From: Fistulifera solaris
Taxonomy: Eukaryota
DNA: 64,000 nt
Direction of reading: 5' to 3'
Assembly (NCBI GenBank): GCA_030295235.1
Contig: AP026123.1
Location: 2,294,001-2,358,000 of the forward strand
This document shows, in pieces, positions 1-11,254 of the stretch. The position numbers were made by a program, and so were the translations under genes. Every line of letters starts with the position of its first letter. The stretch's first letter is position 1. The notes under the pieces were generated by a model that worked only from the letters and a program-made list of their open reading frames with translations, ran no database searches and was not told where the DNA came from.

Positions 1-1605
1 CTGCGTCCAAAAGATGAATGTACTGACAAAAAGCTGGAAGTGATCCTCGGTCCCGATACGACGGATCTACAAATGCGTGTCGGTTTGCACAGTGGTCCAG
101 TGACCGCGGGTGTTCTACGCGGTGAGCGTTCTCGGTTTCAGCTGTTCGGTGACACAATGAACACTGCAAGTAGAATGGAGTCCAACGGGCTTCCAGGAAA
201 GATCCATATTTCACAGGAAACCGTCAGGCACTTGATCGTAGCGGGCAAAGAGCACTGGGTGGTTCCACGCGAGGAGAGAGTGGTGGCGAAAGGTAAGGGC
301 GAGCTTCAAACTTACTGGCTGGTCACTACCAAAGCGTCGAACCATACTCGGAGTGAAACTGCTTCCAGCGAAACTGAAACCACCGGTGATGTGGTGGGAA
401 CCGTGCAACCTGCTGCTAAAGATGCAATCGCTGACACAATGACCAACGAGAAGACCGACCGGCTCGTCAAGTGGAACGTAGAAGTCCTTGCTGCCCTGCT
501 TAAAAAAGTAGTTGCACACCGTAAGGGTGCTGTGCAACCAAAGGAATCGACCCGTAATGCAAGTTTCAGCAAGGTAACAACGACCCCGTTAGACGAAGTC
601 CAGGAAATAATCCGAATGCCGGTCTTCAAACGTGGCAAAGGTAGCCAAATTAAAGAGGAAGATCTTGGTACTGCCGTCCTAGAGCAGTTGCGAGAGTATG
701 TTTCTGCCATAGCCTCCATGTATCGCAGAAACCCATTCCACAACTTCGAGCACGCGTCCCATGTGACGCAATCAGTGGTAAAATTACTTTCCCGCATTGT
801 TGCCCCGGATGTTGATGCTGGAAACAGCGATCTGGAATCGACTTTGCACGACTACACGTACGGCATCACGTCGGATCCGCTCACTCAGTTCGCGTGTGTG
901 TTTTCCGCATTGATCCACGATGCAGATCATGCCGGCATCCCGAACACGCAGCTCATCGTTGAAAATCCTCAGCTCGCCAAATTTTACAAGGACAAGAGTG
1001 TTGCCGAACAAAACTCGGTCGACTTGTGCTGGGAGCTGCTTCAAGACAGCAATTTCAATGACTTGAGAGCTGCCATTTGCCCCACTGAACATGATCGAAT
1101 TCGCTTCCGGCAGCTTGTGGTCAACTCCGTTATGGCAACAGACATCATGGACAAGGACTTGAAGGCTCTTCGAAACATGCGCTGGGAAAAAGCCTTTGCT
1201 GGAAAGAACCACGAGGAGTCGATGAAGGACGCCGTTGATCGCAAAGCAACCATCGTGATCGAGCACTTGATTCAAGCGTCTGACGTTGCTCACACAATGC
1301 AGCACTGGCACATTTACCGCAAGTGGAATCAGAGGTTGTTTGAAGAGTTGTATTGCGCTTACATTCAAGGCCGCTCCGCGACCGATCCCTCGGAGAACTG
1401 GTACAAAGGAGAGATTGGGTTCTTCGACTTCTACATCATTCCCTTGGCTAAGAAGTTGCGCGAATGCGGTGTCTTTGGTGTTTCCAGCGACGAATATTTG
1501 AATTACGCTGAGAAGAATCGTCAGGAATGGGAAGCCAGAGGCATGGAAGTCGTCGCGAGCATGGTGGAAGCCGCGCAGAGGAAGTTCGGCACAAAGTCGA
1601 TGTAA
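1..1605 (+). CDS. Class III nucleotide cyclase fused to a 3',5'-cyclic nucleotide phosphodiesterase (diatom GC/PDE family), 5'-truncated by the window edge
   Basis: Cyclase motifs MRVGLHSGPVTAGVL and RFQLFGDTMNTASRMES; PDE motifs FHNFEHASHV, ALIHDADH, ATD, ASDV, EIGFFDF. Probable 1-nt loss in the A-run at 28-32 (KMNVLTK/KLEV). Confidence 0.9.
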   Translation: MRPKDECTDKKLEVILGPDTTDLQMRVGLHSGPVTAGVLRGERSRFQLFGDTMNTASRMESNGLPGKIHISQETVRHLIVAGKEHWVVPREERVVAKGKGELQTYWLVTTKASNHTRSETASSETETTGDVVGTVQPAAKDAIADTMTNEKTDRLVKWNVEVLAALLKKVVAHRKGAVQPKESTRNASFSKVTTTPLDEVQEIIRMPVFKRGKGSQIKEEDLGTAVLEQLREYVSAIASMYRRNPFHNFEHASHVTQSVVKLLSRIVAPDVDAGNSDLESTLHDYTYGITSDPLTQFACVFSALIHDADHAGIPNTQLIVENPQLAKFYKDKSVAEQNSVDLCWELLQDSNFNDLRAAICPTEHDRIRFRQLVVNSVMATDIMDKDLKALRNMRWEKAFAGKNHEESMKDAVDRKATIVIEHLIQASDVAHTMQHWHIYRKWNQRLFEELYCAYIQGRSATDPSENWYKGEIGFFDFYIIPLAKKLRECGVFGVSSDEYLNYAEKNRQEWEARGMEVVASMVEAAQRKFGTKSM

Positions 1606-2143
1606 ATCTTTGATGAAGGATTATGAACGTTAATTGTTAAAAGGAGATCATTTGTAAAACAAGTTTATTTTATTAGTTGTTCATGAATCATCCAGCACTT
1701 TTTGCCTGCAGGTAGCGGCGCGATAATGGAAATGGAAGGCATCGCAATCGCATGAGGCAACGTTTTTTTGTAAGAATAACCAGGTACCGTACCAGGTACC
1801 GGTACCGGTAAGGTACGGTAAAGGTAAAGTGAGAGGCGAGCGTCTTGATGACGACTTGATCATGACTCGAGACTTACTGGTACGACTCGTCAAAAAATAA
1901 TGATCGACGAGCGCGACGACGATGATGATAAGAAATAATAAACGTTTCAACACATACCAGGTAAGAAACAAAGATGATGATCATACATAACTTGTCAACA
2001 CATTTCAGCAACGAGAGTCTCCATTGCGGTTCAAAGCTACGGAGTGCTATTCTTCCAAAATATAAAGTTATCGAAGTTGATCATTTCTATTATGTTTATT
2101 CAGGCTGCAATTAACTTATTTTCTGTACTGCCGGAGACGCAGC

Positions 2144-4000
2144 TTACTTTCCTTCCATCATCATTTTAAGGTCACTAGAGGGATCTCCAATCGGCATAAT
2201 GTTGTAATTTTGCTGCAAAACACTCAAGATTCCCGGGCTGATGTACGCCGGCAGCGAAGGACCGAGTCGAATGTTCTTGACGCCCAAATGTAACAGAGTG
2301 AGCAGCACGGCAGCTGCCTTTTGCTCCAAATGAGAAATTGCCAAGGAAAGAGGCAGCTCGTTCACCGACTCCAGCTTCATCGCCTTGGCTAATTCAAGTG
2401 CTACTACTACCGCGGAATAAGAGTCGTTGCACTGTCCCATGTCGAGAACGCGGGGAATGGTGGCGCCGTTCGGAAGTGTGATCTGATTGGTAGGGAGATC
2501 ATCGAATTTGAACTTTTCAGACTGTAAGATGCGATTCTTCGCACAGCCAAGTGTGAGAATAATGCTATCTTCCGGGCTTTCGTCAGCCAGATCTGTAAAA
2601 TACGACCGATTCCACTGGGAACCATCACAGCCACCAATGAGTAAGATGCGAGACAACTTTCCAGCCGTGGCGGCTTCAATGATCTGATCCGCTAGAGGCA
2701 AAACCGCTCTGTGATTGAATCCAATGGTTCGGAAAGTGGCCGGCTCGGCAGTCTGCTCAAAGCCCTTGCATTGTTTCGCTTGCTTGATAACGGCCGAAAA
2801 GTCGCGGTTCTTCACATGCTTGATGCCGCTGAGGCCCGTAGCATTGATGGTGTACAAACGATCTTCATAAGTTTTGCGCGGCTTCAAAACACAGTTGGTA
2901 GTCACAACGACGGGGCCCGGGAAGCAACTAAATTCAAAGTTTTGATTCTGCCACGCCGTACCGTACGATCCAGCCAGATGAGGGAAAGCATGAAGCTTCG
3001 GGTACGAATGGGCGGGTAACATTTCTCCGTGCGTGTAAACTTGAATACCAGTGCCTTCGGTTTGCTTCAACAGATGATACAAATCCACCATGTCGTGCCC
3101 GGATACGAGAATGCACTTTCCTTTGACGGCCGAAGTTCGAACGGGTGTCGGGCAAGGCGCTCCTAAAAGTTCTGCATGCGCCGCATCCAAAGCGGCGAGG
3201 ACCGACGTGTTGACTTCGCCAATCCTCAATGCAGCCTGCAGCAATCCATTGACATCCGCTGTATCGTCCGCTAGCTTGGCATAAATTTCATGAATGGCGA
3301 CCATGACGCTCTCGTCGACACTCGATCCATCAATCTCTTGACGCAACTGATGAACGTGCTCGGCGTAGGCACACAGTCCCTTCATACCGTACGTAGCGAG
3401 CTCGTGCAACGAGAAAGCATCTTCGTGATTCATCACCTTGGCTCGTTCCGGAACCGAAACTGGCAGAGCGGCTTCTTGAATTTGCGACTCGGTCTTGTTG
3501 AACCAGTCCAAGTGTGCCACAGGATGGCTCGGAGTCGCCACACCCGCCGCTGCGAATTCTTTCTTGAGGGCTTCACCTTGCTGTATGTATTCGAGAATGC
3601 GACTCTCATCAAAATTCACATTGGTGAGCGTACTGAACGTCGCTTCGAGCGTCCACGTGTTGGCCTTGGCGAGGACATTGGCCGCAGCCCCACTGGCGCG
3701 GGCGGCCGTGCACCACAATGCGACGGATTTTAACACATGAATCAGGGCATCTTGGGCGGCCGAAGTCTCGGGCGTCTTACCACAAACTCCGACGGTCGTG
3801 CAGGCGTGATGATCCGCCGTTTGCTCACATTGACGGCAGAACATGGCGGATTCCGTCGACTGCCAGCGGGCCGTCATGGGAGAGGAAGGAGTCGTCGTTC
3901 TCGTTAAGCCTTGAGGCAAAGCTTGTGTAGCGACCAGGCTCTTGGCGAGCGTCGATCGAAGCTGCGACGAAGCCGCAACGCGGCGTAGAGTGCTCAACAT
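2144..4000 (-). CDS. hcp: Hybrid-cluster protein (hydroxylamine/NO reductase, prismane) with a predicted mitochondrial presequence
   Basis: MFCRQCEQTADHHACTTVGVCGK (C-x2-C-x8-C-x5-C cubane motif); hybrid-cluster motifs SGHD, THGEM, TTNC, GGCDG, LGCAK, GQCNDSY, EQKA; about 50-aa R/S/T-rich N-terminal extension with no acidic residues; intronless. Confidence 0.95.
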   Translation of the reverse strand: MLSTLRRVAASSQLRSTLAKSLVATQALPQGLTRTTTPSSPMTARWQSTESAMFCRQCEQTADHHACTTVGVCGKTPETSAAQDALIHVLKSVALWCTAARASGAAANVLAKANTWTLEATFSTLTNVNFDESRILEYIQQGEALKKEFAAAGVATPSHPVAHLDWFNKTESQIQEAALPVSVPERAKVMNHEDAFSLHELATYGMKGLCAYAEHVHQLRQEIDGSSVDESVMVAIHEIYAKLADDTADVNGLLQAALRIGEVNTSVLAALDAAHAELLGAPCPTPVRTSAVKGKCILVSGHDMVDLYHLLKQTEGTGIQVYTHGEMLPAHSYPKLHAFPHLAGSYGTAWQNQNFEFSCFPGPVVVTTNCVLKPRKTYEDRLYTINATGLSGIKHVKNRDFSAVIKQAKQCKGFEQTAEPATFRTIGFNHRAVLPLADQIIEAATAGKLSRILLIGGCDGSQWNRSYFTDLADESPEDSIILTLGCAKNRILQSEKFKFDDLPTNQITLPNGATIPRVLDMGQCNDSYSAVVVALELAKAMKLESVNELPLSLAISHLEQKAAAVLLTLLHLGVKNIRLGPSLPAYISPGILSVLQQNYNIMPIGDPSSDLKMMMEGK

Positions 4001-4648
4001 GGCGATCGAAAGAAGGGGAAAGGTTTTGATTTATGTCCGCAAAGCAAAACAGATTTATGACGATCCGAAAAGATTCTTTATTTTGGTGAAACGAAAGGTA
4101 TTTCAATGAATGGATTCGGATTTCAAGCATTCACATTGTGGTCTACACTTTCGATCCGCCGATCCGAGAAAAAATGCGAACCTGCAACGCTGCACTCGAC
4201 CGTACTATTTCTGAGTGTCACAACACTTCGGATTGCGGGGAGTTTTGTAATAGTTCACAAATTTATCGGAATCTGAATAATCTCCCCGCGAAATTCGAAG
4301 TCACGCCTGTTCTACCGGAGAACGAAAGTACTTTTTCTATGGTAGTAGAAAGGTATGAGGTCACAGACATTGTCCCTCGGTCACAAAATTCCGGAACAAG
4401 GGCTTGATGAGCATCAACAGCCGCAAAAAATCCGAACTCGCATCTTCAAAAAAATATCCCAAACGATGCATCGTTGTTGTTCGTCACGTTCCTTCCAATG
4501 GCTTGTTTCAAGACTTCTTGGATAGAAAGCGCAGGACGGACTTGACACCAAACAATGAGTTCGGATTCGTCGGGGTAGACATACACCGAGTAAAGATCGG
4601 ATACCGACACCACAATTGATTCATGCCCACAAATTAGAATATCCTCGA

Positions 4649-6504
4649 ATGATGAATCGTTTCTTGTTGCGCTCCACAAGAGCGTCTCTTCCCATGGCGG
4701 TGTCGCGGCATCTACGCTGGTTGTCAACACAATCAGTCAAAGACTCATTCAAAAGGTATCCATTCTTTACGGAAGTCAAACAGGGACGGCTCAACTTTTT
4801 GCCATGCAATTGCAACAGGCACTGCAATGTGCCGGGAAGGAATGTACAATGAAAGCGATGGCCGAAGTTCCACCATCCTCTTTGACCGATGATTGTCTGC
4901 ACTTGTTTCTGATCAGTACGACGGGGGTCGGTGAGTTTCCTTCCAACGCCAAATCGTTTTACGATGGTTTGTCGTCGTCACAGAACGAAGCGGCGGCAAT
5001 TCCATACGCCATCTTCGCCCTCGGAAATTCACAGGCACATCCCAATCACTTTTGTGCCGCCGGCAAAGCACTCCAACAAGCGTTTCAGACCAAATTTCCG
5101 AGTGCCGTTCAGGTTTTGCCGCTGCGATTGGGAGATGACGCTGTCTGTATTGACGACGAATTCGATCAGTGGCAAGAGAAAATCCTTCGAACAATTGCAA
5201 AAGGAACGGAAAGCACCGACGACGAGACTCCCACGAGCGAAACATCGACACCGGAGACGGAGACGAATGTGCCCACGAGTCGGATACCGACAAATTACCC
5301 GGAATTGCACTTGTTGGCAACTCAACAAAGCCATGACGACACGCCAGACCTGCTGGGCATTTTCCCTAGTTTTTATAAGGAGAACTGTCGTCAACGAATG
5401 GAAGTCACGTACAATAGGAACATGCATCCCCACGCCGTCGTGGATACGGGGTTGCATGAAATGCGCTTGTCTTTACCGTCGGACTTGTCGTATGAAACGG
5501 GGGATCACATCATGATATACCCCCGAAATCCAGATCTTTTAGTTCAAGCCTACCTCAGTTATGTCTTGGAAGATGGTGTTGACCCCAGCCAAGTCGTGAA
5601 CGAAGCCAGTCAAGCGGGGCATTATCCGCACCCTTCTGGAATATCGGTGTACCAAACACTCAGTCACTGCGTCGATCTGACAGCGCCTCCATCACCATCC
5701 TTTGCGCGCTGGCTCACCTCATCGAAGTCGTTGGAATACAGACAACAAATATCCCAGCCACGGCGGACAGTGCTGGACTTGGTCATGGAGAATTCCCAGG
5801 TAGAGAAAGTGTCGCTGGCGGATTTGTTGTATCAACTGCCGCCCCTGCAGCCTCGCTACTATTCCATTGCTTCCGCTGCCTCTGTGCATCCGTACGAAGT
5901 ATACCTTACTTACAGACCCGTTCATTACATATCGTCACGAGGAAGTCTACGAGACGGTCTTTGCACAACGTTCCTGCAAAACTGCAAGCCACCCCAAACG
6001 GTCGTCGCTGGATTGGTATCAAATCCCGCCTTTCGCCTTCCGTCGGACCCTCAAGTTCCGGTGATTTTTATCGGTGGAGGATGTGGTGTTGCCCCGATAC
6101 GAGGTTTTCTGGAGGAACTGGTGCATCAAGGCACGAGTCGGCCCAAAAATGTTTCGCTTTACTTGGGTTTTCGTGATCGGGCAGATCAAGTTTATCATCA
6201 GTTAGTCGAAGAGAGCCAAGGATTCCTCCAAGAGTGTCACATCGGATATGCCAGTGTTGGATCTCTCGTGACGAAGGCTTTGGCGCGCAACGCTGAATCC
6301 CTGCATCAACAATTGGTCAGCCAAGGTGCGCATGTATTTATCTGCGGAGGTGCGGCATCCTTCGGTGCTGCCATTCGAAAAACAGTGACCGATCTACTCT
6401 GGCAAGGCAACTGTTCGGGAACGATTCCTGATGCCGAGGCAGCTACAACGTTCCTTCAAAATATGTCATCGGAAGGACGATGGCATGAGGATTTGTCAGA
6501 TTGA
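4649..6504 (+). CDS. Diflavin (FMN-FAD) oxidoreductase of the cytochrome P450 reductase family, with a predicted mitochondrial presequence; one apparent frameshift at about 4751-4754
   Basis: ATG at 4649 gives MMNRFLLRSTRASLPMAVSRHLRWLSTQ. Adding one A in the run at 4751-4754 joins it to VSILYGSQTGTAQLFA (flavodoxin P-loop), STTGVGEFPSNA, FALGNS, YETGDH, PRYYSIAS, GLCT, GGGCGVAPIRGF, YLGFR and FICG. Confidence 0.9.
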
Positions 6505-6619
6505 ACATACGCATCCAAATGCTAGAGAGAATCATACAGAAAAGGTTTAAGTCATAAGTCATAAACAAACCAACGCTATCGATTACGTTATAGGTTCTAG
6601 ATGATCATCGTTAGAAGAT

Positions 6620-7416
6620 TTAGTATTCAGAGGACGTCATAGGAGCATCCGACGAAGTAAATTCAGGATCTTTCTTGGGTCCGTCCTTGAGCAATCCTAA
6701 CGGCTTCAAAAGAGTATTGACAATCGGCTTAAGCATTTCTTGGGTCTTGTCCGAAGCGCCGATAAGTAGACTGAGGACCGCGTTAATCGTAGGATTCAAG
6801 ATACCGTCGTCCACCTGGTGCAACTTGACAGCAACACCCTTATCAACGTCTCCGAGGTTCTTGCCAACTACGGACACAACAGTACCGGCTACACCTTCAG
6901 CAAGACCGAGGAAGGGACCTACGAAGAAAACTCCTTTTCCCCATCCCCAGACGCCCTTGGCGGAGTCGTAAACGTGGGTAGCAACATCGAGATTATTTTC
7001 GGAAGTCATTTCGGAATCTTCAAAGTCTTCTGTTTGAGCGGTAATATCTACAAAGTCCTGTGAAAGAGGGTCACGAGCAAAGGGTGAATCTTTTGATAAA
7101 GAATAATCATCAGCGGGAAAAAGTGTCGACCTCGGCCTGTCTCCATTCCAGAATGCATTGATTGTGCAACCGAGGCAAAGTCTTCTGTCGCAACAGACAA
7201 GCTGCAAGACGATTTGTGCTTCTCATGTATCTGATGCGCTAGTGCCAAGGCTGATATTGTGTCCGTCGGGAGGCCTGGACCGAAGAATAAGGACTCAGCA
7301 GGGCCCTTAGGCGATACAGGTTGAAGCATATCATCGTCGTCCAAGCTAAAATCCCCCGAGGATGGAGTCATCATTGAAATGCCTGGAATGTCGAACTCTG
7401 ATCCGATAAGACTCAT
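6620..7416 (-). CDS. Hypothetical protein (low-complexity N-part, G/V-rich amphipathic C-part); either a frameshift near 7120 or a start at 7009
   Basis: Overlapping ORFs 7048-7416 and 6620-7207 with protein-like composition; no family recognised. Confidence 0.5.
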
Positions 7417-8708
7417 TCTTTCCCTTGATTAACTAATCGAAAGATCAAATGCAACAACTTCAAGTGTTCTCAAAACGGAACAACTATAATATCAAGCAAA
7501 GGAAAGACGCGTGAGAGTTTTGTCTTTCGAAAGAATTGGACGTGAAGCGGCAAGATACAAACGACGGTGCGGTTCGCTCTCCCAATGAGTATGAGTCAAT
7601 GTGTAGACGGCACCAATGCTTCGCAACCGCGGGCGTGCGCGGCATAGCAAAATAGTGTCGGTGAAACAGTAGAGTGACGCGCCGGATAGCGGATCGACGT
7701 CGATTTTTCGCACGGATACGCGAACGCTTTCGCAGGACTATCTCGTGTAAAGTAGCTAAATACTTCGCACGAAAGAATGATTTGCGCCTCTCCGCCACCA
7801 CCATGGCGATCGTGAACGGCGTTTTGTTGCTGAGCATGAGCGTATTCGGCTAGAATGGACTCTAACATGATTATGAAGCGTCTCAATGACTTGGTCGGAT
7901 AAACGAGCGATCAGAAGAGAGCTTACGTGTCTATCGGAAGCATGGTGCGCGTTGCATTGCAATTCATCTCTTTTTTGCACCCAACAGATCCTCTCGCATC
8001 TTTGCTCTTCGGAACGTACCTCTGCAATCAACAACAATATTGTTGCATACCTTGTATTGAATTGTAGTTTGATCTTTTTTGTCGAATGGATTCCAGCTTC
8101 GCGGGGAACGGAACATTACGATTTGTGGAACAAGAAAGGAGTGATGAAAATGGCGGCTCGGATCTCTGCAGATGTGAGGAAGTCGATCGACATCGTTTGA
8201 AATAATTCGACCCTAGACCCATGAATTAAAGTCGTCGACCATTTACGTTTTGCCATTAGCTTTGAGTGCCGTGTAGTCTGTCACATAAGAATATTGTGTA
8301 AAGTATAAAGTACTCTATCGGTTCTGAAATTTACCTAGGGCGTCAAAAATGGGAACTGCATAACATCACCTCTCGAACTCGAAATTGCCGTTCATGTTTT
8401 ATGCCATGGAAGAAAGCGAGGCAGCCAACAGCATAAGTGACCAGTTATCGTCTTCCAACATGCACTCAGCGATCGCTATGTATGCCATTGTCACCCACAA
8501 CGGTCAAGGGCAACGACAAAAGATTCTAAATAGAAATTGTATGGAGCGACTCCTATTTCGTGACACGTCTCAGGTAAAACTGTTACGTGTGCCTAACAAA
8601 CTTGGCTAGGCGACTCGATTCTTCTAATACTTGGATTGCTTCTTTCGCGACTGGTGCACTCGAGACAAATTGGTAGAGCCTAGAGGTATTAACACTCTAA
8701 AACTCCAG

Positions 8709-9554: not shown

Positions 9555-11254
9555 ATGAAATCGCTCTCCCAATGGATTCTCGCTTCATTGTGCGCATCGG
9601 CTGCCGCACTCTTGAAAGAAGATGCTCGAATGGTACGACGATCGGATCTTTCTGTGTCTCATTGTGTATCCGACGATCACTCACTCACTCATGCACTTAG
9701 ATGGCGTACGTCGGAAACTGGCAAACCTGTCCCTCGGAGGCTCAGCTCGAACAATACACGCACATTGCGATCGGATTCGCGGTCACGTATACGTATGCGG
9801 AGCCGAAGAATTTGTGCAGTGAAACGTGCGTCATCGAAGTACCGTTGATTTGTGAAAATCAGGCGGATCCTAGCATTATCAGCGACTGGAAGTCTCGCGG
9901 CATTAAAGTATTACTGAGTTTTGGAGGAGCGGGTATGGGTGGAAGTTGGGAAGGAGATGTCAACGATTGCTGGAAATACTGCTTCGGCCGAGAAGATTAT
10001 GTGATCGGTCGTTTGGTCGAATTGGTGAATACGATGAACCTTGACGGCATCGATTTGGATTATGAATACTTTCTAGAAGATGAACCCGAACGAGGATTTA
10101 CAGAAGGGGCTGCGGCAATCAACTTTCTCGAAACTGTGACCGTTGGATTACGACAACAGATGCCCGATAAGATTCTGACGCATGCGCCGATGGATGTCGA
10201 CGCGGTGGCAGGAACGGCCTACTATGAAATGTTGGGACGCATTGCTTATACCATGGATTTTATCATGCCGCAATATTACAACGGTGTCACTCGACCCAAT
10301 GTGGACGGCTTCATGAATCAAGTACAAGGGGAAATGTCACCCTTGGATCATTACAACGGCCTGTTGCCTTTGTTTGAATACGATCCTACTCGTATCGTAT
10401 TTGGGTTTTGCATCAATGATTGTGGAGGTGAGTGATAGATGAGAACGGCTGCTTTGTGAGTATGAGTGTTCGAAGTGTCTCAACTTTGCTTGACAGGTAC
10501 CGGCTCGAACTCGGATGCAACCCAGGCCTCAACTGTCATCACTGAGCTAGAAAGTCAATTTCCCTGTCATGGCGGAGCTTTCTTCTGGGTAAACTTAGAC
10601 GATACAAATGGAGATTGGTCGAGAGGTGTCAATCAAGCTCTGTCTTTTAATCGCGGATGCACCAATATTGGTGGCGTAAGCCCTACTCCCCCTCCTCTTG
10701 CCGTCCCTGTGTCTGTTCCTGTCGCTCTTCCGGCTCCCACGTCTCCAATCGGGGTTTCTCCCGTTCCTGTCGCTCTTCCGATCCCTTCGTCTCCGATAGG
10801 CATTTCCCCTGTTACAGTTCCGATTCCAATTCCTACACCAGCCCTTCCATCCGCTCCTATCGCCTTTCCGAGCCCTTTGTCTCCGATAGGTATTTCACCT
10901 GTAACAGTTCCGATTCCTATCCCTACATCCGCCCTTCCTTCCGTTCCTGTAACAAGTCCTATATCAAGCCCTCTTTCCCCCAGTTTGCCTGTTGGGACTC
11001 CAACTCCCACATTCCCGGTAATAAACTCCGCACCGCCCGCCGTGACTCCGGCTACAACGACTTTGGAACCCACCGAGCTTTTAACACCGACAGCGAGTCC
11101 CATTGGCATGGTCAGCATTGGTAACGGCTCGGTGACCGATCCCAATGAACCCAATTTTTATGATCCCAACAACTCTCTGTCCTATGCGGTTTCGTCATTT
11201 CAAGCAAGCCTTCTTCTCGTTCCAACTCTGGTTACATGGGCTTTATTGATGTAA
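9555..11254 (+). CDS. GH18 chitinase, secreted, with a Pro/Ser/Thr-rich stalk and probable GPI-anchor signal; introns 9633-9700 and 10428-10496
   Basis: Signal peptide MKSLSQWILASLCASAAA; LLSFGGA and catalytic NLDGIDLDYEY (DxxDxDxE); MPQYYN; GT-AG introns restore the frame; hydrophobic C-terminus ASLLLVPTLVTWALLM. Confidence 0.9.

Follow-up and report, generated by a model that had tools for sequence, protein, structure and literature searches.

Among the closest described systems to the locus reported here is the Hcp-Hcr pair of Escherichia coli. There the N-terminal [4Fe-4S] cluster of a hybrid-cluster protein (HCP) is fed by a dedicated pyridine-nucleotide oxidoreductase, the FAD/[2Fe-2S] enzyme Hcr, whose gene is linked to that of the HCP. 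E. coli Hcp belongs to class II; class-I proteins carry an N-terminal four-cysteine motif, CX2CX8CX5C, and class II has 4 extra residues (PMC10210160). According to the same source, prokaryotic class-I HCPs usually come without a dedicated partner, and its section 4.3 states that the class-I electron donor is unknown. Ferredoxin has been put forward as the electron donor of HCP in Chlamydomonas (PMC8003979), and the HCP of Acanthamoeba is described as mitochondrial by microscopy and induced by anoxia (PMC13632651).

Here we describe a locus in the diatom Fistulifera solaris at which an HCP gene stands head to head with a gene for a diflavin reductase (Table 1). Positions are those of the window, the whole 64,000-nucleotide stretch of contig AP026123.1 that was analysed. 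A first-pass annotation had proposed that an intact HCP and a diflavin reductase diverge from a 648-bp spacer, and the coordinates and profile matches agree with it: the start codons lie at 4000 (minus strand) and 4649 (plus strand), and therefore the spacer runs from 4001 to 4648. Comparison with three orthologous spacers found no conserved motif in it. Both genes are covered by cDNA-like contigs, and a loose end in run X3, a poly-T of 25 nt that lies before plus-strand position 2071, corresponds to the poly(A) of a minus-strand mRNA. Runs X1, X3 and X4, each from a single organism, showed no intron-like joint in either gene, in agreement with the first-pass description of both genes as intronless; the single joint of this kind that was listed comes from the metagenome run X2.

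Table 1. Features of the divergent HCP/reductase locus, in window coordinates.
Feature	Coordinates	Strand	Support
HCP 3' UTR, as far as a poly(A) site near 2071	2071..2143	-	Run X3
HCP CDS, 618 aa, intronless	2144..4000	-	Prismane and NF003658 profile matches
HCP [4Fe-4S] motif C55-x2-C58-x8-C67-x5-C73, class-I spacing	3782..3838	-	PDB alignment
HCP presequence, residues 1-52, mitochondrial-type, ending ..ARWQSTESA, then MFCRQCEQT	3845..4000	-	
Divergent spacer, 648 bp, presumed bidirectional promoter	4001..4648	.	
Diflavin reductase CDS, intronless, 618 aa with the missing C after 4749 counted	4649..6504	+	
Reductase presequence MMNRF..LRWLSTQSVKDSF, containing the assembly indel at 4749/4750	4649..4752	+	
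FMN (flavodoxin) domain	4762..5172	+	Flavodoxin_1, residues 4-140 of P0002, 75.1 bits
FAD-binding domain	5398..5973	+	FAD_binding_1, residues 216-407 of P0002, 85.8 bits
NAD(P)H-binding domain without the 2'-phosphate ligands of CPR	6067..6357	+	NAD_binding_1, residues 439-535, 38 bits
C-terminal EDLSD tail, Ser replacing the FAD-stacking Trp677 of CPR	6487..6501	+	

The HCP matches the Pfam Prismane profile (PF03063) over its full length (466.5 bits, profile positions 1-513 of 513) and lies well above the cut-offs of the NCBIfam hydroxylamine reductase model NF003658 (645 bits, cut-off 367) and of TIGR01703 (606 bits, cut-off 361). Its best PDB matches are the E. coli protein 7de4 (466 bits) and the D. 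desulfuricans protein 1gn9 (434 bits), with which the motifs SGHD, HGE, TNC, GGCDG, GCAK, QCND and EQK align. By the spacing of its cysteines it is a class-I HCP, and the class-II Hcp of E. coli, when aligned to it, shows 3+1 extra residues within the motif. The same 2,8,5 spacing occurs in 101 of 122 stand-alone HCPs, and the cubane cysteines are invariant in all 25 aligned diatom HCPs. So are the hybrid-cluster ligands H302, E326, C370, C458, C486, C524 and E559 (25/25), whose roles (one His, two Glu, four Cys) we take from the Desulfovibrio structures. A different contig of Seminavis holds a second HCP (P0270), which has no known partner.

The reductase gene carries a 1-nt shift near 4752 that had been pointed out in the first-pass annotation. 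The shift is present in the window sequence, where one frame gives MMNRF..KDSF over 4649-4750 and a different one opens the flavodoxin domain at 4753, but it is an assembly error. The contigs of all four public runs that were aligned to the region have an extra C after 4749, each time at full depth, and the deposited protein FisN_20Hh172 (P0003, 618 aa) and that of the other homoeolog (P0317) read ..KDSFQKVSILYG.. unbroken. That this copy is a pseudogene, frameshifted between presequence and flavodoxin domain, is suggested by the out-of-frame window sequence at 4750/4753; the run contigs that restore the frame refute it, in line with the continuous deposited protein and the cDNA-like coverage, and we give it practically no credence.

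By its domain order, Flavodoxin_1, FAD_binding_1 and NAD_binding_1 (Pfam profiles), the reductase belongs to the diflavin reductase superfamily, whose members include CPR, CysJ, NOS reductase and MTRR. Its best PDB match is NADPH-cytochrome P450 reductase (CPR/POR; 171 bits, full length), with which it shares the three-domain order, the FAD RxYS motif and the catalytic Cys/Asp. The FMN, FAD and NAD cofactor motifs are invariant in the family (20/20 and 102/102 sequences), as are RxYS and the catalytic Cys (each 102/102). The diatom enzyme differs from CPR in having no N-terminal membrane anchor and in lacking both the C-terminal Trp677, which stacks on FAD in CPR, and Arg597, Lys602 and Tyr604, which bind the 2'-phosphate there (rat numbering). 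At the stacking position the family has Ala (75) or Ser (27) and CPRs have Trp (68/68), a split inherent in the comparison, as the two groups were defined by the C-terminal tail itself (Trp versus EDL[SA]D). At the position of Arg597, 68 of 68 CPRs have Arg, but the top three residues in the 102 family members are S (30), T (12) and K (12); Lys602 is kept in 65 of 68 CPRs and is Cys in 62 family members; Tyr604, present in 68 of 68 CPRs, is Leu in 56 and Phe in 20. The missing 2'-phosphate Arg, Lys and Tyr suggest that the reductase uses NADH. In a tree of 60 rows, the diatom reductases and other proteins with acidic, Trp-less, EDLAD-like tails form one clade of their own (SH-aLRT 98), adjoining CPR.

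Other identities for the enzyme were rejected. Canonical CPR fails on the anchor, the maximal 12-aa hydropathy being 0.65 among 71 family members compared to 2.6 among 49 Trp-tailed CPRs. CysJ fails on its profile (TIGR01931, 179 bits, cut-off 668) and groups with a different set of reductases in the tree (see below), while methionine synthase reductase gives a poorer structural match (PDB MTRR 2qtl, 66 bits) than CPR. For an Hcr of the E. coli type, no Fer2 or FAD_binding_6 match was found in P0002 with the Pfam profiles.

We compared the arrangement across diatoms. In Seminavis robusta the reductase (Sro1024_g232680, 'P450 reductase', r:24640-26971) and the HCP (Sro1024_g232690, 'Hydroxylamine reductase', f:27344-29309) also stand head to head, 372 nt apart. 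Consecutive locus tags mark the pair in a Bacillariaceae MAG (SGBAC_005909 and SGBAC_005910) and in the second F. solaris homoeolog or subgenome (FisN_20Lh172 and FisN_20Lh173). A metagenome set yielded 16 loci with a reductase ortholog (L001-L016), six of them with at least 2 kb upstream; five of these six have an HCP upstream on the opposite strand (L008, L009, L010, L011 and L014), and they represent three distinct taxa because L008/L009 and L010/L011 are near-duplicates. Over 367 aa, the L014 HCP shares 97.8% identity with that of the centric diatom Skeletonema marinoi. Six further pairs of reductase and HCP clusters lie on contigs of identical size (P0008/P0202, P0021/P0212, P0030/P0296, P0033/P0306, P0038/P0219 and P0058/P0216). 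The divergent pair is thus conserved in both pennate and centric diatoms, from raphid pennates to Skeletonema, and its adjacency is not limited to F. solaris, as a synteny check suggested at first pass now shows: it recurs in Seminavis, in the Skeletonema-like L014 and in two further metagenomic diatoms. Because the same arrangement recurs in other diatoms, the head-to-head pair is beyond chance, and the two genes appear to move together with respect to a third, conserved gene in the neighbourhood. The linkage is not universal in diatoms. The two genes are on separate contigs in Mayamaea (1.24 and 2.99 Mb) and in Cyclostephanos (227,562 and 941,198 nt), and at L007 the 2.8 kb upstream of the reductase hold a capping-enzyme-like gene instead of an HCP.

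A physical union of the same two activities exists elsewhere among eukaryotes. Our search for longer HCP proteins listed 74, of which 68 combine Flavodoxin_1, FAD_binding_1 and Prismane in 1136-1283 aa, with the reductase N-terminal and the HCP C-terminal; their hosts include fungi, ichthyosporeans, oomycetes, Chromera and Chrysophaeum. Their annotation reads 'hybrid cluster protein' or 'hydroxylamine reductase', for example in Basidiobolus, Gonapodya, Sphaeroforma, Chromera, Aphanomyces and Chrysophaeum, and a footnote in PMC8003979 calls the fusion in Cyanophora 'HCP fused to sulfite reductase'. Class-I cysteine spacing is kept in 69 of the 70 long, fused HCPs P0126-P0195 of the search list, so that, as in the diatom pair, class-I HCP goes together with a flavodoxin/FAD/NAD diflavin module, but within one polypeptide rather than as two separate genes. 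The fused reductase moieties (14 in the tree) form a clade with support 100 that adjoins CysJ (92) and have an aromatic F or Y at the FAD-stacking position, whereas the diatom reductase belongs to a CPR-sister lineage with Ala or Ser there; it scores 44-115 bits against the fused reductases and 120-169 bits against its best CPR/CysJ matches. As the two sets fall in separate clades, two different diflavin lineages are tied to HCP, and the fusions therefore support the principle, not the diatom protein directly.

Bacterial loci offered a further comparison. In 4 of 16 bacterial hcp loci an Hcr-like gene (Fer2/FAD_binding_6/NAD_binding_1) lies directly downstream, and all four have class-II spacing; an Hcr-like neighbour was found at none of the six class-I loci in the sample, and a diflavin gene within 6 kb of hcp at none of the 16. 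A Fer4 protein adjoins class-I hcp downstream in L044 and upstream in L056. Like E. coli, then, the diatoms have an HCP with a genetically linked oxidoreductase that would feed the N-terminal cluster, and we infer that NADH use and NO/hydroxylamine chemistry are shared as well. The diatom partner, however, is an FMN+FAD diflavin enzyme of roughly 580 aa with no [2Fe-2S] domain, its HCP is of class I, and the two genes are divergent, not co-transcribed, with organelle presequences on both products.

These presequences end in the patterns described for them in the first-pass annotation, as read from the translations (...MTARWQSTESAMFC in the HCP and ...RHLRWLSTQSVKDSF in the reductase). At least 20 aa precede the Cys motif in 73 of 80 HCP orthologs (median presequence 59 aa), with on average 4.8 R and 0.4 D+E in the first 40 aa and a maximal 12-aa hydropathy of 0.89; the reductase presequences have a median of 58 aa. 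An MPP-like Arg motif was found in 46 of 73 HCPs, 35 of 71 reductases and 0 of 49 CPRs, compared to shuffle maxima of 20 and 17. Both gene families thus have presequences that look mitochondrial in type, rich in Arg and poor in acidic residues, features that would fit a mitochondrial matrix location of the two proteins. Plastid import in diatoms needs a signal-peptide-like hydrophobic stretch and an ASAFAP-like motif, and no such motif was present in any of the 73 HCP presequences.

We propose that HCP and reductase form a two-component, NAD(P)H-driven reductase system in the mitochondrial matrix. The soluble, CPR-like reductase would pass hydride from NAD(P)H, probably NADH in view of the absent 2'-phosphate ligands and gating Trp, onto FAD, and its FMN would hand single electrons on to the class-I HCP, which would accept them at its N-terminal [4Fe-4S] cluster. 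At the hybrid [4Fe-2S-2O] cluster the HCP would convert NO into N2O, hydroxylamine into ammonium, or both, and the 648-bp spacer would act as a bidirectional promoter keeping the two genes in step. With electrons reaching HCP through the FAD and FMN of a diflavin enzyme, that enzyme would thus take the role that Hcr has for the class-II Hcp of E. coli. We put at about 0.68 the probability that the reductase acts in mitochondria as a dedicated donor, passing electrons from NAD(P)H to HCP. The synteny, the 68 fusions, the presequences and the bacterial Hcr-like neighbours all favour the first-pass proposal of a CPR-family enzyme replacing Hcr in a mitochondrial two-gene unit, with electron transfer, compartment and co-regulation as its conjectural parts. 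That annotation had also known of no description of such a pairing, and our literature search found no published one.

The two genes might instead be neighbours that merely share a bidirectional promoter, with the reductase serving another mitochondrial acceptor (a P450, haem oxygenase, cytochrome b5 or other Fe-S enzyme) and HCP being fed by a general carrier such as ferredoxin. The unlinked genes of Mayamaea, Cyclostephanos and L007 would fit this, as would the promiscuity of CPR-type enzymes as donors, as described in PMC6397501, the ferredoxin proposed for Chlamydomonas (PMC8003979), the usual lack of partners for prokaryotic class-I HCPs (PMC10210160), mirrored in our six class-I loci, and the Fer4 proteins beside hcp in L044 and L056. 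A shared promoter alone does not readily account for a head-to-head order kept from raphid pennates to Skeletonema, for a block that appears to move as a unit, or for the fusion of an independent diflavin lineage to class-I HCP in 68 proteins, and we regard this explanation as unlikely.

Alternatively, the pair may be real but act outside the matrix, in the cytosol or plastid, or its physiological task may lie elsewhere than in reducing NO or hydroxylamine, for instance in signalling by protein S-nitrosylation or in the removal of peroxide. Our localisation derives solely from sequence features, a plastid location is predicted for three of the four HCPs of Chlamydomonas (PMC7412212), and there is debate about what HCP does physiologically, the proposals being hydroxylamine reductase, NO reductase and S-nitrosylase (PMC7412212, PMC10210160). 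Against a non-matrix site stand the low hydropathy of both presequence families (0.89 and 0.65), with no signal-peptide-like stretch, the lack of ASAFAP-like motifs in either family (0 of 73 HCPs), the enrichment of MPP-like Arg motifs in both families and the mitochondrial HCP of Acanthamoeba (PMC13632651). We consider such a site or role decidedly improbable.

The dedicated-donor reading may extend beyond diatoms. More tentatively, and with the odds against it, the pair of HCP and Trp-less reductase may be an ancient eukaryotic mitochondrial cassette, inherited from early eukaryotes or transferred head to head between eukaryotes, that gives the anaerobic metabolism of mitochondria an NADH-driven branch from NO to N2O or from NH2OH to NH4+, other lineages having fused a CysJ-like reductase to HCP. 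A link between the pair and the use of nitrate in dark anoxia is speculation. If the ancient-cassette reading is true, diflavin reductases would be the long-sought physiological donors of eukaryotic class-I HCPs, and diatoms, with a dedicated enzymatic route, could add to marine N2O.

By its sequence, the hybrid cluster protein (HCP) encoded in the window, which is from the pennate diatom Fistulifera solaris, is intact and belongs to class I. It matches Pfam Prismane over the whole profile (466.5 bits) and the NCBIfam hydroxylamine reductase model at 645 bits, with a cut-off of 367. Its cubane motif reads C55-x2-C58-x8-C67-x5-C73, and the E. coli class-II protein has four extra residues here when the two are aligned. 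The motifs carrying the hybrid-cluster ligands in the solved structures from Desulfovibrio and E. coli all align and are invariant in 25/25 diatom HCPs. The start codons of HCP and of the neighboring diflavin reductase, at 4000 and 4649, point apart across 648 bp, bearing out the divergent arrangement described in the first-pass annotation. Its further claim that both genes lack introns also stands, as no intron-like joint appeared in either gene in three single-organism sequencing runs, two of which are cDNA-like and cover both genes. The poly(A) site of HCP mRNA is marked in one cDNA-like run by a loose poly-T end of 25 nt that precedes 2071. Spacer positions 4028-4609 had contigs in runs X1 (single-organism) and X2 (metagenome) and none in the cDNA-like X3 and X4, a gap that proves nothing about transcript ends. 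No shared promoter motif was found among k-mers of 7-10 nt in the spacers of the window and of metagenome loci L011, L009 and L014: words of 9-10 nt common to the four spacers were absent, and the only common words were A-rich, at rates that were also reached in 13-15/200 shuffles.

The reductase reading frame is interrupted near its start. Translated in one frame, positions 4649-4750 give MMNRF...LRWLSTQSVKDSF; the flavodoxin domain then starts in a frame shifted by one base. When contigs of the four public runs were aligned to window positions 1700-7500, a C was inserted behind 4749 in 4/4 runs at full local depth. The added C restores ..KDSFQKVSILYG.., identical to the deposited protein (FisN_20Hh172, which matches the window reductase at 100% identity) and to the second homoeolog. 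The 1-nt shift reported earlier near 4752 is therefore present in the window sequence but is an assembly error. We also rejected the possibility that the reductase is a pseudogene, given the extra C in every run and the read-through of the deposited protein and the homoeolog.

An alignment of 20 reductase orthologs, used to search metagenome contigs, picked out 42 loci, with orthologs in L001-L016. A tblastn search with HCP against all 42 gave five matches (L008, L009, L010, L011 and L014), each with HCP encoded on the strand opposite the reductase and upstream of it. Upstream sequence of 2 kb or more is available for six ortholog loci, and HCP is present there in 5/6, or in 3/4 distinct taxa once the near-duplicates L008/L009 and L010/L011 are merged. 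At L007, the remaining locus, a capping-enzyme-like gene takes this position and HCP is absent. The spacer, measured from ATG to ATG, is 553 nt long in L011; for L014 it is 166 or 271 nt. Over 367 residues the L014 HCP shares 97.8% identity with its Skeletonema marinoi counterpart, so the paired arrangement is found in a centric diatom as well as in raphid pennates. Further pairs occur in public annotations (see table), and among the best 120 rows of each search listing six more reductase/HCP cluster pairs lie on equal-sized contigs, which does not imply any distance between the genes. In Mayamaea and Cyclostephanos, HCP and reductase are on separate large contigs. The synteny search suggested in the first-pass annotation thus finds the adjacency recurring in other diatoms, among both metagenome loci and public annotations, with a linkage that is not universal. 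Seminavis robusta has two HCP genes (proteins P0270 and P0287): Sro1024_g232690, which is paired with the reductase, and Sro1750_g295230, which is on another scaffold and has no known partner.

A third conserved gene accompanies the pair: in the window, L001 and L015 it comes after the reductase, in L010 and L011 after HCP. Since it flanks the reductase in some loci and HCP in others, the HCP-reductase block looks as if it had been inverted as a unit relative to this gene. In the window, an assembly indel splits the third gene into two frames (an A is inserted behind 7117 in 3/4 runs). Protein-atlas feature matches point, weakly and as a lead only, toward perilipin/REF-type lipid-droplet proteins.

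Features of the window, with paired genes and the third gene elsewhere
Feature	Location	Strand	Remarks
Cyclase-PDE fusion ORF	window 1-1605	plus	5' end open; adenylate/guanylate cyclase catalytic and 3'5'-cyclic nucleotide phosphodiesterase domains
HCP ORF	window 2144-4000	minus	618 codons, uninterrupted
Diflavin reductase ORF	window 4649-6504	plus	Flavodoxin_1, FAD_binding_1, NAD_binding_1 in order (diflavin architecture)
Third conserved neighbor gene	window 6620-7416	minus	~250-265 aa; no Pfam match
Chitinase-like ORF	window 9701-10435	plus	glycosyl hydrolase family 18 domain
Third gene at other loci	L011:6181-6936; L001:2700-2996; L015:668-1042; L013:2523-3042		metagenome loci
Seminavis robusta pair	r:24640-26971 and f:27344-29309		'P450 reductase' and 'Hydroxylamine reductase'; one scaffold; public annotation
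Bacillariaceae MAG pair	SGBAC_005909 and SGBAC_005910		consecutive tags; public annotation
Other F. solaris subgenome pair	FisN_20Lh172 and FisN_20Lh173		public annotation

Compared with known diflavin types, the window reductase is nearest to NADPH-cytochrome P450 reductase (CPR, 171 bits), followed by the NOS reductase domain (146), CysJ (85) and MTRR (66). CysJ identity was rejected because the score is far below the CysJ cut-off and CysJ groups with other reductases, those fused to HCP, in the tree described below; MTRR identity was rejected on its score relative to that of CPR. Searching 1.84 billion representatives with a profile returned 16,403 reductase relatives. Every member of the top group, which extends to non-diatoms (the rhizarian Lapot gusevi, for example), has the C-terminus ..GR.xEDL[SA]D and an Arg-rich N-terminal extension. 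In a quick IQ-TREE phylogeny of 60 rows, these EDL-tailed reductases form one clade (SH-aLRT 98) beside the CPRs. Existing annotation labels them 'NADPH-hemoprotein reductase' or 'P450 reductase'.

To compare residues, we counted alignment columns in 102 EDL-tailed family members and 68 CPRs with the C-terminal Trp, using rat numbering via the alignment. All 102 family members retain RxYS, the FAD motif, and the catalytic Cys. Arg597, present in 68/68 CPRs, is outside the family's three commonest residues at that position (Ser 30, Thr 12 and Lys 12 of 102); Lys602 (65/68 CPRs) is mostly Cys (62/102), Tyr604 (68/68 CPRs) is Leu or Phe, and the position of the stacking Trp677 holds Ala (75) or Ser (27). 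In CPR, we take Arg597, Lys602, Tyr604 and Trp677 to serve 2'-phosphate binding and nicotinamide-site gating, and their loss points to NADH use or relaxed specificity in the EDL-tailed reductases. We regard these enzymes as a separate CPR-like family that is soluble, presequence-bearing, Trp-less and probably NADH-linked. Several other matches, among them P0358 (Mucochytrium quahogii, 1169 aa), are 1100-1800 aa long and contain either two diflavin-like stretches or a diflavin module preceded by ~400 other residues. One of them bears the annotation methionine synthase reductase; these long proteins end in DIWS and fall outside the EDL-tailed family.

HCP is also found joined to a reductase in a single protein. 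Of 74 longer HCP relatives, 68 combine Flavodoxin_1, FAD_binding_1 and Prismane in 1136-1283 aa, with the reductase N-terminal and HCP C-terminal. The fusions come from zygomycete and chytrid fungi, ichthyosporeans, oomycetes, Chromera, the pelagophyte Chrysophaeum and many others, and class-I Cys spacing is present in 69/70 of the proteins P0126-P0195 in this listing. In the same 60-row tree, the reductase parts of the fusions group apart, in a clade of their own (100) that is joined to CysJ (92). Two different diflavin lineages are thus tied to HCP, one as a fusion and one as a divergent gene pair. The idea that the diatom reductase is a split form of the fused reductases was rejected: scores were 44-115 bits against them versus 120-169 against the best CPR or CysJ, identity to them was 24-25%, and the tree places the two apart.

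A search of prokaryote genomes with the alignment of diatom HCPs identified 16 loci, and a diflavin gene was found within 6 kb of hcp at 0/16 (tblastn, four diflavin queries, E<=1e-3). Directly downstream of hcp at 4/16 (L045, L047, L048 and L049) is a Fer2/FAD_binding_6/NAD_binding_1 gene resembling that of the E. coli Hcp reductase, Hcr, and all four hcp genes have class-II spacing. In a Pfam scan of the nearest 41 of 99 flanking ORFs, no Hcr-like neighbor was found at the six class-I hcp loci. This distribution agrees with the published rule that a reductase is known for class-II HCP only (PMC10210160). In the four Hcr-like proteins, Fer2 is N-terminal and is followed by FAD_binding_6 and NAD_binding_1. 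An Rrf2-family regulator adjoins hcp in L047 and L044.

The N-terminal regions of both diatom proteins resemble targeting sequences. At least 20 residues precede the Cys motif in 73/80 complete HCP orthologs (median 59); the first 40 residues contain 4.8 Arg and 0.4 Asp+Glu, the maximum 12-residue hydropathy of the extension is 0.89, and an ASAFAP-like plastid motif occurs in 0 of the HCP presequences examined. The extension of the EDL-tailed reductases has a median of 58 residues and a maximum hydropathy of 0.65, versus 2.6 in membrane-anchored CPRs. The common pattern first seen in the two window presequences (ARWQST and LRWLST) proved to belong to a family-wide Arg motif, found in 46/73 HCPs, 35/71 reductases and 0/49 CPRs (shuffle maxima 20 and 17 in 200 shuffles), which is presumably of the mitochondrial processing-peptidase type. 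From these sequences we infer a probable mitochondrial compartment for both diatom HCP and reductase. Acanthamoeba HCP has been shown to be mitochondrial and anoxia-induced (PMC13632651).

We propose, with a probability of roughly 0.68, that the diflavin enzyme takes over the function of Hcr, acting as dedicated NAD(P)H:HCP oxidoreductase for a mitochondrial class-I HCP. By analogy with bacterial HCPs, the substrate of HCP would presumably be NO and/or hydroxylamine. The main rival explanation is that the two genes are neighbors without electron transfer between their products. The linkage of HCP and reductase is incomplete and CPR-type donors are known to be promiscuous, and these two points favor neighborhood alone, which we consider unlikely overall. 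A complex prediction for mature HCP (53-618) with the FMN domain (36-190) scored 0.13 against a mark of 0.34 and, being without controls, is evidence neither way.

Diatom HCP itself has been described before: its expression is high in Phaeodactylum (PMC2945787), it is recorded for Phaeodactylum and Thalassiosira (PMC7412212), and Parmales lack it (PMC10328945). The physiological donor of class-I HCP is given as unknown in PMC10210160, and the main text of PMC13632651 names no diflavin, P450 reductase, flavodoxin, CysJ or sulfite reductase. Our literature search found no paper in which HCP is connected with a reductase of the diflavin, CPR or CysJ type, in line with the initial statement that no description of the pairing was known.

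The question of the class-I HCP donor has been open for decades, and the conserved divergent pair, together with the independent fusions, gives concrete, assayable candidates. Diatoms, in turn, gain a testable enzymatic module for mitochondrial NO or hydroxylamine handling, which is relevant to survival in sediment that is dark or anoxic, to stress from nitrate or nitrite, and to N2O production by algae.
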